Below are positions 40,401 through 57,100 of a stretch of 64,000 nucleotides of DNA, piece after piece. The stretch spans positions 1 through 64,000 of the forward strand of contig JBFLGF010000113.1 in NCBI GenBank assembly GCA_050230475.1, given 5' to 3'. Source of the DNA: Ancylonema sp. (taxonomy: Eukaryota). Made by a program: the position numbers and the translations under genes. The number at the start of each line of letters is the position of its first letter. Position 1 is the first letter of the stretch. A model generated the notes under the pieces. The model did no database searches. It was not told the origin of the DNA and saw nothing but the letters and a program-made list of their open reading frames with translations.

Positions 40401-41580
40401 ACTAGATTTTGGCCCTCTGGCATATTGTTTGACCTGGACATGAACTCTTTGCCTTGATAGTAAGTACTAAACTTTTTCGTTGATCGTCATAAAAAAAATA
40501 TGTTGATAAAATGGATTTTAATCGGTGGAAAAAATACCATCAAGTTAAATGTTCAGAACAACAAATGTTTTAACTCCCCGACAAGGTAAACGTATTCATG
40601 ACTTGTACGTTATAACAAACGTTGTTTTGATGGTAGGGATGGCCCCTACCATAGCTTGGTCCCGGACTTGGATCGCGGACGCGTCCGGGATACGTCCGGC
40701 CCCCGATGCTTCCGGGACGTGTCCGGAGATCCCCGGGTCGTCCGGGGCTCAACATATATTTTGTATTTTTGTTTATATTTTCCGGGGGTAAGTTTGTTGA
40801 AAGTATTTTGTATTCACATATAAGACTTCAAAAGCTATAATCCTCACTCACATGTAAATGTGCATGTGTCTTTGTTCACGTCATTACATTCTACCACGAT
40901 CCCAGCTTGGGACGCATCCCACGCTTGGAATCGTCCAAGACGCGTCTCGAAATCTCCGGGCTGTCGGGTACCCAACAATGGCACCTAACCGTTTTCGGCT
41001 CGTGGTTGGGGGTAGCCTACCCGTTGGGTAGGACGGAATTTGCTCGAGTGTAGTGACGGGTAGGGGGGAGGGGGTAGGGGGTAAGTAGCAATTTTTTCTT
41101 CTCTTCACCTTAGAGTAGGTAGTGTGTAAATTTCGCACGTGTGACCATACACGTGCAAAACTCGCTCCAAAGAAAAAATACATTTAATTGGTTAAAATAA
41201 ATTTATGGTCCTTGTCAAACATTCCGTCCCACCTCCCTACCATTTCCTATTAGTTTCTCACATTACGAAGGAATGGGAGGACAACGATGGTACGGGAAAA
41301 TACGATAAACGGGAGACGTGCTAAACGACAGAGTTGTAGCTTTCAAACGACAAGGGGGAATTGCGAACGGGGACGGGATAACGACGGAGTACATAATGTA
41401 ATGAATCAGTACTACACAAGGATAATAATCCATCGCTCACAGGGGTATGGGGCTACTATTTGTTTGTTTTTAAGTTCTTGTGGGTCCCGCATCGCTTGCG
41501 GATTTTGCGAGCCCGGCTGCGAGCCAGCGCACGCGCGGTCCGGCTCTGGCTCCGGCTCCGGGACCCGCTATGTTTCATTC

Positions 41581-43477
<1,897 letters not shown>

Positions 43478-44470: not shown

Positions 44471-44762
44471 CATAGTTGCGTCCCGGACGCGAAAATCCCG
44501 GACGCGCCCGGGACCCATCCAGCCGCGGACGCGCCCGGGACACATCCAGCCCCGGACACGTCCTGGACGAAAATCCCCGGACGGTCCGGGACACAACAGA
44601 GATGCGAATAAACAAAAAGGTTTTCATTTTGAAGTCACATAAATGAAAAAGGAATATTAGTTTGTAGCTTACATGTCCAGATGACGCGTCCGAGATGTGT
44701 CCCGGCCCGGACACATCCCGGACGCGTCCGAAGACGCCCACACACTCCAGGGCGCAACTATG
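44471..44762. mobile_element. MITE of the CATAGTTG-TIR family
   Basis: CATAGTTGCG...CGCAACTATG termini with CCGGAC subrepeats; no TSD match. Confidence 0.6.
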
Positions 44763-45612
44763 ATAGTCACACATACAACGGCAATTTCTATGAACTTCAA
44801 CTTTTTGGAAATGGTTGATGTAAATATTGCCATTCCTATATTTTCAGGATTCTCTACACAGGTGTTATTTGCGCCTATACGAATCACTTATAGTATCCCA
44901 GGTCATGTACCGTTATACACATCAAGTTGTGAAAGTAACATCTACAATTGCGTGTTGCACTTCAAAATTAGAAAACATAAACTGAAAATCCTACTATAAC
45001 CGGACTGCCATTTTGGTCTAAGAGGTTGGACCCCAGTTCGGAGCCATCTCGGAACCCCAGGTCATAGGTCTGTGCATGTACAGAAAAATCAGGGATACAT
45101 GTACAGTATCCTTGCTTCACAAGTCATACAAGGCTTTATTCCATCCGAAGTATTGCGTTAGGGTACAACAACCCTAACACATAACAAAGCAAGAATACCA
45201 TTTGAGTTCATTAGAGTAACAAGACAAAATATTAATATTATTGATTCTCATTAACAGACAGATATTACTGAAAAACCATCATGTGACTTATCATTTCCCT
45301 GAATCATGAAGTATACTCTCCACCCATAGAGGTAATTCCTCCATAGAGGTAAAGACAGGCATACAAATATTGGCATCACTATGGAAAGACGTACTCTTAC
45401 CTACCCACTCATTTTCCTAGTCAGTATAGAGGGATTTTTCTCAACCTGTAACAACAAGAGTAAAACTGCATGATACCAACTTGAACATCGCTAACATCTT
45501 ATAGGAAATGTACATATACTTCCCTGCGCACCAATTATGCACCAGGTATAAAGATTATTGATTCAATCTCACCTGATACCACAAGTAACGTCAGCCCCTC
45601 ATGAAACACACA

Positions 45613-45720
45613 TAGCACTTCTCTACACAACAATTGTGCTGGTCAGGTTCGAAGGGTATTGTGTCAGCCTCACCTGATAACAGCAATGATGCTGCTACCA
45701 GCTGAAGCACCCCTAGCGCC
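45613..45720 (-). promoter_or_regulatory. TPP riboswitch aptamer 3 of the THI1 3' UTR (distal, partly degenerate)
   Basis: GGCGCUAGGGGUGC-P3-GGCUGACACAAUACCCUUCGAACCUGACCAGCACAAUUGUUGUGUAGAGAAGUGC; substitutions in the CUGAGA and GCGUAGGGAA consensus motifs. Confidence 0.8.
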
Positions 45721-45833
45721 AATCAAACCTATAATTACTTCACACCAAATCCCGCCCGCTAGGAAGTTGGGCAAGTGGCTCTCCCCCTCAACTGACAACA
45801 ACGGAGTTACTGCTACCAGCTGATGAAAACACA

Positions 45834-45941
45834 TAGCACTTCCCTACGCAGCAATTGTGCCGGTCAGGTTCGAAGGGTATTGTCTCAGCCTCACCTGATG
45901 ACAGCACTGATGCTGCCACCAGCTGAAGCACCCCTAGCGCC
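45834..45941 (-). promoter_or_regulatory. TPP riboswitch aptamer 2 of the THI1 3' UTR
   Basis: GGCGCUAGGGGUGC...GGCUGAGACAAUACCCUUCGAACCUGACCGGCACAAUUGCUGCGUAGGGAAGUGC; full TPP consensus with P1-P5 pairing. Confidence 0.95.
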
Positions 45942-46090
45942 ACACAAAATATAAATAAATTTCATACCACATATCTCCATACCTTTGCCTGCTAGTCAGT
46001 TACATCGGCCATAACTCCGCCTCAACTGATAGTAACAGAACTGCGCTACCAGCTGATCATCCCTACCACACAACAATGCAAGAACACACA

Positions 46091-46197
46091 GACGCTTCCC
46101 TACGCAGCGATTACGCCGGTCAGGTCCAAAGAGTATTGTCTCAGCCTCGACTGAAAGCAACATTACTGTTGCTGACAGTGGAAGCACCCCTAGCGCC
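46091..46197 (-). promoter_or_regulatory. TPP riboswitch aptamer 1 of the THI1 3' UTR (proximal)
   Basis: P1 GGCGCU/AGCGUC; GGGGUGC; long P3; CUGAGA; ACCUGA; P5 CGGCG-UAAU-CGCUG; GCGUAGGGAA. Confidence 0.95.
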
Positions 46198-46496
46198 GTT
46201 GTGCAAACAAAGAAGTCTGACCTGAAGGTATGTCCCCAACCATGATGCGGGTCAACCTGGGTTATCAACAAGCGGAATGCCGACCAGATGAGTTCCGAAA
46301 TTACTGAATGATGTCTACACCCAGGAACTGACGTTGAGCCGACCAGCAACTACACTACATGAAGGGGTCCGACAAATTTACAGTCAAAGATTACAAACAA
46401 CTCTCTCCGAACACAGCACCTGACATATCTGATCGTTCCACACTGCTACGATTCAACCACTGCCCTGCGATCACAATCAATGTCTTCCATCATCCT

Positions 46497-52809
<6,313 letters not shown>

Positions 52810-53447
52810 CTCCCACTGATTGACTAGTTGGCAGGTAAGTCTCGGATGCTCTCTCGTACCTCTCTTTCCCACTGTCTTTGTAGTGAGGAATTCTATCTGA
52901 GGTAAGATTGGCTGGATATTTTTAAAAGGCGTTGTAAAAAAAATCCCCTTTTTTTTTTAACATGCCCTTGCGTTTCCGCATCTGTGGTGCTACTTGACCA
53001 TTTTGGGCCATTATTTAATTATATATATTATTTTTCTATTTTGTGCTATGATTTTATGTGCGTGTACCTGTTTATTGTCTCTTTTGCAGTGAAGGGCAGC
53101 AGACACAAGTGGATTTGCCGTATGCTGCGTCAGTTAGTTTCAAGACTTGACGCCATGGTTTTCGCTGGCATGTATGAGAAACCCTTTTTTGGAGTTGGAG
53201 TATGCAGGAGATTTTGTTTTTGCTACGAGGCCATTGATTGCTTGCGACTAGAATCGGTGGAACGCAAACCCGTGAGACAATGAGCAAATAGACCAAATTT
53301 TGTGTGCTAAAAAAAACGAGGGAGTATCGCGGACTTTTGATCTGACCGACGACCGTGACCTTCCACTCTGCTTCCAGGTCCGGAATGAAGTCACATATCT
53401 GCATGAAAACCTACGGTGTAAGTTAACCTACTCGTTTGTGAAGTGAG

Positions 53448-53556
53448 GGCACTAGGGGTGCTGCAGCTGGCAGCATCAAAAAAATGATGCTGTCAGTTGG
53501 GGCTGAGACTAAACCCTCACTACCTGACCAGCATAATTGCTGCGTAGGGAAGTGCC
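53448..53556 (+). promoter_or_regulatory. TPP riboswitch aptamer 1 of the THIC 3' UTR
   Basis: P1 GGCACU/AGUGCC; GGGGUGC; 15-bp P3; CUGAGA; CCCU..ACCUGA; P5 CAGCA-UAAU-UGCUG; GCGUAGGGAA. Confidence 0.95.
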
Positions 53557-53600
53557 TTTTCTTTTTTTTTTTCTTTTTTCTTTTCTTTCTTTATCATCAT

Positions 53601-53705
53601 GGCACTAGGGGTGCTTCAGCTGGTAGCAGCTGCTAGCCGCTATCAGTTGCGGCTGAGACTATACCCTCACTACCTGACCAGCATAATAGCTGCGTAGGGA
53701 AGTGC
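53601..53705 (+). promoter_or_regulatory. TPP riboswitch aptamer 2 of the THIC 3' UTR
   Basis: GCACUAGGGGUGC...GGCUGAGACUAUACCCUCACUACCUGACCAGCAUAAUAGCUGCGUAGGGAAGUGC. Confidence 0.93.
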
Positions 53706-53735
53706 ATGTTTTATTGATCCATTCCTTTGTTATCA

Positions 53736-53793
53736 CACTAGGGGTGCTTAACTGATTGGCGCCTTCATGGCTGTGATCAGTTGCGGCTGAGAC
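53736..53793 (+). promoter_or_regulatory. Truncated third TPP aptamer (5' half: P1/P2 5' strands, P3, CUGAGA)
   Basis: CACUAGGGGUGCUUAACUGAU...AUCAGUUGCGGCUGAGAC, then similarity is lost; no P4/P5. Confidence 0.75.
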
Positions 53794-53948
53794 AGGAGGT
53801 TCAGTAGGTAGTGTAAGTGTTTATTGCCAGAACTGTAGTTGGCCCAATTTTTCCCGATCCCTGGCCCAGATCAGGATCTCGATCCGGATTGGACTTGATC
53901 TAGTTCGGCTCGAAACCGAATTTGATATGGTTCGGGTCCGATCTGGAT

Positions 53949-54108
53949 TGGCGCCAGATCGGAACTATTCTGATCGCAGCGGAGCTAACAAGGGATAATA
54001 AACACAAACGAAGTCGAATAAACGCGTTGGCGCCAGATCGGAACTATTCTGATCGCAGCGGAGCTAACAAGGGATAATAAACACAAACGAGGTCGAATAA
54101 ACGCGTTG
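53949..54108. repeat. Near-perfect ~79-bp tandem duplication
   Basis: TTGGCGCCAGATCGGAACTATTCTGATCGCAGCGGAGCTAACAAGGGATAATAAACACAAACGARGTCGAATAAACGCG occurs twice. Confidence 0.9.
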
Positions 54109-54164: not shown

Positions 54165-57100
54165 CATAGCTGGGTCCCGGACCGTCCGGGGATCTTCGGA
54201 CGCGTCCGAGACCGGTCCGGGCCCGGACGCGTTCCGGACGCGTCCCGTACCCGGACGTCACACCCAAAATTTGAACTCCGTATGCGGCTAAGTATTCCCG
54301 GACGCCTGAACTGGCCGGCGCATTGCGAGTAGTATGCAACACAAGACAGGTTATTCCTCGGCAAGCGACGCGGCTGTAACGTGATGCGGTGAACACTTGA
54401 GGGGCATAGTGGTGTATGATGTTGCAGTGTGTAAAGCTTTCAGAAGTGTATATTGGTTAGTCTTGGAAAAACAATTCGGACAGAGTGGATGCTGCCTACA
54501 CGGCGACTATCAAGAATAATTTTACTATAGTAACATGCGGCGATGGAAAGGAAAACGGCAATGCTCAGTGGAACTGCAATTTTAGTGCGAAGAGCATTAG
54601 TGGTACCGCAACCAGGCTACCATTGCATCTTACTCGACGGAGATCGGACGAAAACCACTGCTACAAATTTCCAGACGTTGAACGAAAGAAGATGAATAAC
54701 TCGACTTTGTAGCAAACAACAACGGGGAAGGTACCAGTTTGTAGAATCACGCAACGGATACTCAACAAGGCGAGAACCTCCTCGGCTTCCACGACACCTG
54801 AAACCTTCAAGCGACTTGGAAAGGGAGACGTTGACGAGAAGGTGGAGCTAGTGTTCATCGCGAATGGAATGCCCTTCAAAATAGTGGAGTAAGTATGATT
54901 TGATCGGGAATGATCTAAGTGCTATTTTGCTTCCGTTGTCATCAGTGATATTCTGCGAATCTTTAAAGCCGTAGAATAGGTTTGACTGTAGTATATCTGC
55001 TACAGTCAAACCTATTCACTCCATTGGGTCTGCAGATCACCAGAGTGGAAGGAAATGGCCAGGGCGATGCAGACCCAAGGGGGCACATACGTTTCACCCA
55101 GTAGGAAAACTCTCGCGGAAAGCTCCTCAAGAAAGCGCGGCGAAAGACAGCTGAAGCTTCAACAAACGTGGGAGGAAGAGGGCATAAAGAAGACAGGTTT
55201 TGTGCTTCAGTCGGACGGATACGACGACAACAGCAAGCGACCTCTCATCAACACCCTGCTGTCTACACCAAGAGGCTCAAAATTCCATTCAGCTAAGGAC
55301 GCCGAAGCTACCTGATGTCTCACATTTCAGATTGACTTATCATTGGTATTCAGTGTGCCTTCGCAATATGATGGAGATTTTGTGTCAAGGTTTTATTCTC
55401 ATCTGGTCATTCCGTAGTATGTTTCTTATTACAAGCCATACTATACTTGTAGGTGCTGAGAAGAACGCAGAATACCTAGCCGCCCATTGGCTGGAGACGA
55501 TTGAGGAGTATGGACCCAACAATATCACTGCCTGCACAGACGGCGCCCCTAAAAATGTCAAGGCGGCAGCGATGGTCAAAGATGTGTAAGTATCCACTCT
55601 CTAATCATGACCATATCTGATACGTGATTAGACTTGCTTGTAGGCACCCACATTTTCCCTGCATGCTCTGCTTTGCGCACTCCAGCACCCTTTACTCCTG
55701 AGCAGCTCGAAAAAGTAGTCAGACATGTGACCTTTTGTTGGACATGCTTTTAGGTACCCACATATCTTCTGGGTGCACTGCACTACCACGCCCTCGATTT
55801 ACTTCTGGAGGACATGGGGAAAATTCTGTTCCGAAACAACATTGAAGCCGGCAGGAGGATAATCAAGTTCCACCGAGGACATCAGCGATCGCGAGCGTGG
55901 GTGCGAGAGTTCTCTCCAAACAAACAACTCAGGTCACCAAGTAAGTTCTCTGAAATTATTGTTCAGCTATCTATCCTGCTCCCATCACCAAGCACAAGTC
56001 GCATAAACTTTGTATATGTGTCTTCCAAATGCTACACGCTTTTACACGGAGTTCCTGGCGGCCGAGCGACTTTTGGATCTGAGAGCGGTGTTGCGAAGCA
56101 TTCAGAAAGACACTCGCTTCATTATGTGTTACCTGCAAATCGGGGAGAGGCGGGCTGGGTACAGTTGATGGTGGAGGAGAATGAGGATTTTTTTGCCCAG
56201 CTTCAGCTGATTGTGAACCTCTTTGGCCCGATTGTTGACCTGATGAAGATGACTGACAAGGACGTGGCCACTATGGGGAAGGTATGACTCCTTCAATTCA
56301 ATGATATCAATGATTGTCTTACTTGAGTGTTTTGTCATCAATCCCTTATTTTATATTATTATATGTATTTAAAATCATGAATTTTGCCCTTTTATTGTAC
56401 CCTTACTCACAAGTGTACAGTCGTGCCCAAAGATTGATCACACGAGTCAACACTGTCGAGTCCCCTCATTTCACCCCCGATGTGAGGACTGCCGTGAACA
56501 AAGTTGTGAAATCACGCGTGGCGAAACTCATCAGCCCACTCCACGCAGCTGCGTATGCCCTAGATCCTGAGTTTCAGGGTGAGAAGAAATCTTCAAAGGT
56601 GAGAGCGCATTTCGAGGAAGTTTGCGTGACCATCTTAACACCGGAAGAATGTTCGCGAGCCAACCTCGGGCTCACTGCGTTCAACAACAAGTTGGGTGCT
56701 TTTGGGAGGTCGGGTGTACTTGACATGGCCGACAAGATGCCAGCACACCAATGGTGGCTAGAGTGCGGAGGCGATTGGTCTGAGTTGCAGAGGGTGGCAG
56801 TGCGGATTCTGGCCATGGTGTCGGGCTCCGGGGCTTGTGAGCGCAATTGGCGGGTCTTCGACTTCATCAAGAGCAAGAAGAGGAACCGCCTTACTCCAAA
56901 ACGAGCCATTCTACGTCTTTCACAACAACAAGTTGCTCAAGAAGCTCGAGGAAGACCTGAAGAAAGAGGCTGAAGGAGGTTTGGGGAGATTTGTGGCATG
57001 GGGTGAAGCGAGGTTGGTGGGTGAAGAGTGGGAAGATGACGATGAGGAGGAGGAGAGGGAGGAAGAGGTGGACAAGGAGGAGGAGGTGGACGAGGAGGAG

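Follow-up and report, generated by a model that had tools for sequence, protein, structure and literature searches.

Two intact TPP aptamers among decayed copies in the 3' UTR of Ancylonema THI1, with a second array on the adjacent THIC gene

Can a eukaryotic thiamine gene carry several TPP aptamers in one 3' UTR, and would these aptamers act together on splicing? The question is raised by a 64,000-nt stretch of an Ancylonema contig (JBFLGF010000113.1; hereafter the window), in which a first-pass annotation had reported three complete TPP aptamers behind THI1 and had proposed a multi-aptamer splicing riboswitch. According to the relevant passages of PMC10226581 and PMC3597705, the free P4-P5 strand of the plant aptamer masks a 5' splice site in the 3' UTR, which yields a short and stable mRNA, while TPP binding frees the donor and allows splicing to a long and unstable mRNA. 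The acceptor in plants and green algae is an AG in P2, as described in part of PMC9544697. In the portions of the literature covered, the tested eukaryotic riboswitches are single aptamers. Here we report that the array behind THI1 is real and wider than first noted, but double rather than triple.

The THI1-THIC locus and its aptamers

THI1, which encodes thiazole synthase, occupies 46497..48078 on the minus strand. The gene is intact, with an open frame of 357 amino acids in four exons (48078-47470, 47330-47127, 46898-46803 and 46661-46497), GT-AG introns of 139, 228 and 141 nt, a Pfam Thi4 match on exon 1 (E 5e-60) and a stop codon at 46499-46497. A protein tree placed THI1 among the streptophytes with no supported sister except a 93% identical relative, and the best named full-length match was that of Spirogloea (79% identity), which together with the habitat would fit a zygnematophyte ice alga. 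The RNA evidence consisted of contigs from four ice metatranscriptomes of one study, the only runs in which the sequence turned up, with 14-19% of the sampled words in each; joints in these contigs bridged all three THI1 introns.

Head-to-head with THI1 lies THIC (48760..52809, plus strand), with Pfam ThiC on two exons, RNA-contig joints over introns and a candidate start taken from the open reading frame. Each of the two branches of thiamine synthesis begins with one of these genes, THI1 or THIC, which together span 46497-52809. Because they are arranged head-to-head with start codons (the THIC codon being a candidate) about 680 nt apart, the arrangement suggests that they share a promoter. 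A literature search found no paper on a head-to-head THI1-THIC pair. Outside the gene pair, GC-rich palindromic repeats of one family at 44490-44760 and 54165-54256 form inverted arms, 9.4 kb apart, that flank THI1-THIC, and a similar stretch is found near 40650-40700. A long run of TA dinucleotides lies at about 41600-41900, and interrupted reading frames at 54700-56000 resemble a hAT-type transposase remnant.

The three THI1 aptamers were found on the sense strand, 300-880 nt past the stop codon, at the spacing of 256 and 221 nt that the first-pass annotation had given. A search with Rfam RF00059 (gathering score 54.3), which had been suggested with the annotation, matched all three copies on the minus strand: A1 at 46080..46201 with 53.8 bits (E 2e-8), A2 at 45824..45945 with 57.1 bits (E 4e-9) and A3 at 45603..45724 with 38.0 bits (E 2e-4). 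Only A2 exceeds the gathering score; A1 falls short by 0.5 bit and A3 fails. We consider A1 and A2 intact and A3 damaged. In A1 the J3/2 and GCG motifs are present, and all 16 of the tested pairs in P1, P2, P4 and P5 can form. The folding z-scores are -2.4, -3.9 and -4.1 for A1, A2 and A3, respectively. Each copy has an AG in the 5' strand of P2 in the alignment, and the candidate 3' splice AG ends at 46190 in A1, 45934 in A2 and 45713 in A3.

The claim of three complete aptamers does not hold for A3, in which three bases of the ligand pocket and P4 are lost: CUGAGA has become CUGACA (G to C in J3/2), the C of the GCG pyrophosphate motif in J5/4 has become U, and a G to A change breaks a P4 pair. 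According to part of PMC3764141, the J3/2 UGAGA and the pyrophosphate-side G, C and G are conserved ligand contacts. A1 and A2 keep these bases (UGAGA in J3/2, and G, C and G in J4/5-J5/4), as do the two intact THIC aptamers described below. A1 and A2 are predicted to be TPP sensors; A3 is likely no longer a sensor. Across ten aptamers, 98% of 200 cells of the P1-P5 three-way junction pair, compared with 38-59% in slid controls, although the structure was drawn from the same sequences; the sole break in P4 is that of A3. The compensatory change that had been noted in P5 does exist, as G-C in A1 and A-U in A2; its position closes the loop, however, and is not among the four pairs that the Rfam model assigns to P5.

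The last position of L5, which would correspond to a known base of thiM, is a pyrimidine that can pair across the loop in four of the five window aptamers, and a purine in the five outside aptamers. Since the corresponding base in thiM approaches the thiazole ring (PMC2018614), ligand affinity or specificity may differ in the window aptamers, a point that counts against the switch proposed below.

A second array, absent from the first-pass annotation, follows THIC on the plus strand. It contains two intact aptamers, C1 at 53444..53567 (57.7 bits, AG ending at 53455) and C2 at 53597..53717 (61.3 bits, AG ending at 53608), and a half copy, C3, at 53731..53794 (nhmmer E 2e-7, AG ending at 53741), which runs from P1 to CUGAGA and is without P4-P5. 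A near-perfect 79-nt tandem duplication at 53948-54105 lies 150 nt behind C3. In the last THIC coding intron (52593-52671), just before the acceptor, stretches match or complement the aptamer P3 (15 of 16 nt, E about 0.25), possibly by chance.

Duplication, selection and relatives

An nhmmer profile of five aptamers detected three or four decayed copies in the THI1 array that are absent from the first-pass annotation, all on the minus strand: R1 at 45975..46073 (E 9e-6; AG at 46063), R2 at 45740..45827 (E 2e-5), R3 at 45504..45596 (E 2e-8; from the P3 3' strand to P1) and a weak, possible further relic at 45389..45448 (E 9e-4). The profile matches themselves cover 46065-45990 in R1, 45824-45780 in R2 and 45582-45512 in R3. 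R1 and R2 keep the P3 hairpin, and R1 has a P4-P5-like strand complementary to the flank of the candidate donor discussed below. The array thus reads intact, relic, intact, relic, damaged, relic, with an aptamer plus a relic as the repeat unit, and probably arose through successive local duplications. A strong donor-like CAG|GUGAG occurs in the P3 3' strand of A2, A3 and R3 (45894, 45673 and 45572, minus strand), 40 nt past the AG of each copy; such sites could define mini-exons.

A3 is 92% identical to A2 and is a recent copy of it. No intact copy in the window exceeds 81% identity to A2, so A2 is not a fresh copy of one. We counted differences in an alignment of 105 columns, with a core of 48 columns that was derived from five outside aptamers only. 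A1 and A2 differ in 23 columns, of which 3 fall in the core against 10.5 expected (P 3e-4), and pairing is kept for two of these three. Because the differences avoid the conserved core, both A1 and A2 are likely kept by selection, though the counts are small. C1 and C2 differ in 14 columns, with one in the core (P 1e-3). The 8 differences between A2 and A3 include 4 in the core, with 3.7 expected, and all four are derived in A3; since the split from A3, A2 has gained a derived compensatory G-C pair in P3 and no core change. Judged by this pattern, A3 is decaying.

The two arrays also resemble each other. In the P3 interior, THI1 and THIC copies are alike in 20-27 of 33-34 columns, compared with 19 of 34 for A1 and A2 and 23 of 33 for C1 and C2. 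Because the ten-aptamer tree resolved no window clade, it is this P3 identity that points to copying between the THI1 and THIC loci in this lineage.

To place the array among relatives, we used 80 of 107 THI1/THI4 loci, all 80 scanned with a local profile and 36 of them with Rfam. An aptamer-like match was found in 19 of the 80 loci, and it lay behind the gene in 11. Ten of these 11 are moss-like and partly redundant, with a single copy each in 534-5632 nt of sequence behind the gene; the remaining eight matches were single and lay on the 5' side or inside the matched region. No close orthologue with a 3' UTR was seen among the 80 of 107 loci. An exact pattern of the window P4-P5 variant had no match in metagenome contigs and none in bacterial and archaeal genomes; therefore, no orthologous array was found in these collections, nor any sign of a bacterial donor.

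The eleventh locus, L061, is a contig free of introns; it encodes a protein with 97% identity to one from Cymbomonas and carries two aptamers of 66.1 and 57.3 bits. Both pass the gathering score, and one of their 15 differences falls in the core. The pair has one common complement before a GU near the stop codon, and in folding the predicted openness of the donor was 0.34, 0.42 and 0.53 with none, the first and both aptamers bound, with the hand-over between aptamers that a shared site predicts. Because the L061 aptamers group apart from the window copies in the aptamer tree, the doubling at this locus arose independently.

This green-algal pair bears on the statement in the first-pass annotation that tandem TPP aptamers are a bacterial feature. 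That statement is contradicted in print as well: Saprolegnia NMT1 has two TPP aptamers in 5'-UTR introns, for which no mechanism is proposed in the passages concerned (PMC5882874). The window resembles Saprolegnia NMT1 in having duplicated TPP aptamers on one biosynthesis gene of a eukaryote, and differs from the oomycete 5' UTR in its 3'-UTR position, its green lineage, its two genes, its relics and its candidate shared donor. A Micromonas gene bears aptamers in its 5' and its 3' UTR (PMC4260697, in part), and a plant-wide THI1 survey, in the parts covered, places 3'-UTR aptamers in non-seed plants, with a gene duplication as its sole 'tandem' (PMC11521341). We found no paper on tandem TPP aptamers in a green-lineage 3' UTR in a full-text search that covered mostly titles, and the supplements of PMC4260697 and PMC11521341 may list some; nor did the literature search return a paper joining riboswitch, Zygnematophyceae and thiamine.

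A candidate shared 5' splice site

A scan of the 340 nt before A1 for the best complement of the P4-P5 strand returned the same stretch for A1, A2 and A3, at 46335..46360 on the minus strand, which we refer to as the anti-aptamer stretch and which is the predicted expression platform. A candidate regulated 5' splice site, GUCAGU (46327..46332, minus strand), follows 3 nt after it, 164 nt past the stop codon. GUCAG also begins a THIC coding intron. The duplexes of the anti-aptamer stretch have energies of -27.6, -24.7 and -18.5 kcal/mol for A1, A2 and A3, respectively. A window anchored on the donor fell within the top 0.3%, 1.1% and 2.7% among 1500 random windows, and it was matched by 12, 21 and 49 of 523 donor-like windows; 3, 11 and 29 of 100 shuffles reached the duplex value, with a null step that was coarser and therefore favours the observed value. 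Four donors in the THI1 tail were tried, and those at 46424, 46304 and 46221 were set aside for weaker pairing or too short an intron. Applied to four moss-like control loci, the donor test failed at the GUAAGU donors of every one; in one of these loci a better complement lay at another GU, 126-135 nt from the acceptor.

Introns from 46332 would measure 143 nt to A1, 399 nt to A2 and 620 nt to A3, compared with 139-228 nt for the coding introns. A YTRAY branch point precedes none of the four THI1-array AGs, whereas 8 of 13 coding introns and 6 of 7 outside aptamers have one; in the THIC array, two of the three AGs have it. Behind THIC, candidate 3'-UTR donors lie within 52835..53134 on the plus strand, GUAAGU at 52835 (acceptor at 53089) and GUCAGU at 53129, both complementary to the P4-P5 of C1 and C2. 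Their windows rank in the best 2% of random windows and are equalled by 33-37 of 523 donor-like windows; in whole-region folding, pairing between P4-P5 and donor reached 0.28 at best.

In folding of the THI1 3' UTR, the anti-aptamer site is predicted to pair with A1 (0.89) when the transcript ends after A1, and with A2 (0.76) when it ends after A2. When A1 was forced into its bound fold, the site stayed on A2 (0.77); when A2 was bound, A1 did not take over the site (0.03). The donor at 46332 was unpaired at 0.35-0.43 in all states at 37 C and did not open upon binding. The relic R1 forms a duplex with the donor flank of -26.3 kcal/mol, and it wins the anti-aptamer site (0.89-0.96) in four of the five transcripts that are long enough to contain it. 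Since R1 is unable to bind ligand, masking would at equilibrium become independent of ligand. Thus, either the shared-site model works only within a brief window during transcription, or this pairing is mispredicted.

The RNA contigs were also inspected around the donor. Near-identical contigs cross 46332 unspliced, one of them consistent with splicing over two THI1 coding introns (one study), as would be expected of the ON form. Near-identical contigs end at 46276, 46280 and 46294, inside the predicted intron; these ends would suit a short 3' end, but they reflect absence of cover in one study and were not counted as evidence. Contigs that are at least 80% alike touch the bins 45788-46081 in one of four runs and 53432-53725 in two of four runs. 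No splice joint into any aptamer was seen in the assembled contigs of this one environmental study.

The array is like the plant 3'-UTR TPP riboswitch (Arabidopsis THIC and THI1 of non-seed plants) in aptamer class, genes, sense position in the 3' UTR and AG in P2, and also in the predicted masking of an upstream donor by P4-P5; the two candidate 3'-UTR introns of THIC have a counterpart in Arabidopsis THIC (PMC9972560, in part). Unlike the single aptamers of plants, the window has arrays on both genes, a longer P3, a reversed central P5 pair and an L5 that can close with an extra pair, and its THI1 AGs are without a clear preceding branch point. By analogy with the plant riboswitches, we infer that the array may control splicing, and its most likely mode of action is that of a plant 3'-UTR splicing riboswitch that has a second aptamer under selection.

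Readings of the array and what it would mean

We propose, tentatively and with a probability of about 0.42, that the two intact THI1 aptamers work jointly through a single 5' splice site, as an OFF switch of splicing of the plant type. By the plant THIC model, a free P4-P5 strand would pair beside the donor when TPP is scarce, the intron would be retained, and a short stable mRNA would be cut inside the retained intron. Upon TPP binding, the P4-P5 strand would be withdrawn and the intron removed by splicing to the AG of an aptamer; the resulting long mRNA would decay. By the usual rule on the distance from stop codon to junction, nonsense-mediated decay of the spliced form is plausible, because the junction would lie 164 nt behind the stop. 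What we would add to the plant model is that OFF should require both A1 and A2 to be bound, because either free aptamer could mask the same site.

The dose response of such a switch was calculated for independent aptamers. With two copies that must both be bound, the 10-90% range is 40-fold, compared with 81-fold for a single aptamer, with a Hill coefficient of about 1.2 and a midpoint of 2.4 Kd; three independent aptamers would give 32-fold. If any bound copy sufficed, the slope would be the same and the midpoint 0.41 Kd. The steeper response foreseen in the first-pass annotation is thus possible, but small. Of the multi-aptamer eukaryotic splicing riboswitch that it proposed, the plant-type 3'-UTR array with two copies under purifying selection stands, while three working aptamers do not, with A3 decaying.

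The locus can also be read as an ordinary single riboswitch: control of the intron would rest with A1 alone, and A2, A3 and the relics would be leftovers of duplication, or spare acceptors, in a copy-prone region. A1 is indeed nearest the donor, with the strongest duplex and a normal intron length, and at least four other array copies have decayed. With some 400 nt between the donor and A2, transcription may reach A2 too late, and of the 11 related loci with an aptamer in the 3' UTR, 10 carry a single one. We nevertheless regard this reading as rather unlikely, since the differences of A2 from A1 spare the core, A2 has gained its derived compensatory pair and, at no more than 81% identity, is no fresh copy of any intact window copy, and the core-sparing pattern is repeated in C1/C2 and in L061. 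Selection on both copies would equally fit two aptamers acting in series, with A1 controlling the first intron and A2 a later splicing or processing step, or with one copy sensing while the other lends its AG, so that any bound copy acts and the curve is pseudo-cooperative, as in bacterial tandems. Each copy has its own AG, and donor-like sites occur between the copies (46003 and 45982) and in P3 of A2 and A3 (45894 and 45673); but the best complement of the A2 P4-P5 is the site of A1 (in a scan limited to the 340 nt before A1), and the nearest donors would give introns of 49-70 nt, below any intron seen here. Action in series therefore seems to us unlikely.

It is very unlikely that the aptamers are conserved without thiamine-responsive gene control, or that the array is an assembly error. 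Conserved yet unresponsive aptamers have a precedent in diatoms (PMC9544697, in part), and the missing branch points and the ligand-blind relic R1 would be in keeping with an array of that kind, but the AG that is missing from the diatom aptamers is present here; as for the assembly, divergence of 8-24% between copies and the relics interspersed among them are not what an assembly repeat would show. Still more improbable is that all three copies work, with A3 shifted to thiamine or its monophosphate so that the array reads several vitamers. A3 keeps its fold (z -4.1), and bacterial variants with P4-P5 changes lose phosphate discrimination according to passages of PMC5473149 and PMC9481103; yet A3 also alters the J3/2 base that binds the pyrimidine (PMC3764141, in part), and half of its 8 differences from A2 lie in the core, as chance predicts (3.7).

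The shared-site switch that we favour may be compared with bacterial tandem TPP riboswitches, for which a review counts 213 cases, one of them triple, and makes no mention of eukaryotes in the sections concerned (PMC9481103); a TPP-TPP-TPP arrangement precedes Bacillota thi genes (PMC12452182, in part). Like these, the window has two or three aptamers for the same ligand per transcript and possibly a steeper response. In bacterial tandems, however, every copy comes with a separate expression platform and ligand binding to any one of them is enough for OFF, whereas one shared platform is predicted here. Dual aptamers on one platform are given only for glycine and guanidine-II in the table of the review (PMC9481103). 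The ghost aptamers of the glycine riboswitch, as described in part of the same source, are non-binding remnants beside an intact aptamer, as are R1 and R2, but the glycine ghosts support the folding of their partner, whereas R1 and R2 are known here as sequence remnants only.

A bolder proposal, which we hold to be doubtful, is that green algae have more than once built multi-sensor TPP switches in which the aptamers compete for one splice site and repression needs all of them bound. At this locus, the head-to-head THI1 and THIC would exchange copies and tune their threshold by the birth and death of copies, and the relic R1 would be a timer that closes the decision window.

With intact, dying and dead copies next to one another on both of its genes, the locus is a record of how a riboswitch multiplies and moves between genes. 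If the two intact copies share a splice site, the locus would be a rare multi-sensor switch in a eukaryote and, if true, the first eukaryotic riboswitch in which aptamers for the same ligand share one platform. Steepness would increase only a little, and the predicted shift of the threshold is upward, opposite to the downward shift of bacterial tandems. From a double aptamer of this kind one would learn how logic can be added to splicing switches.
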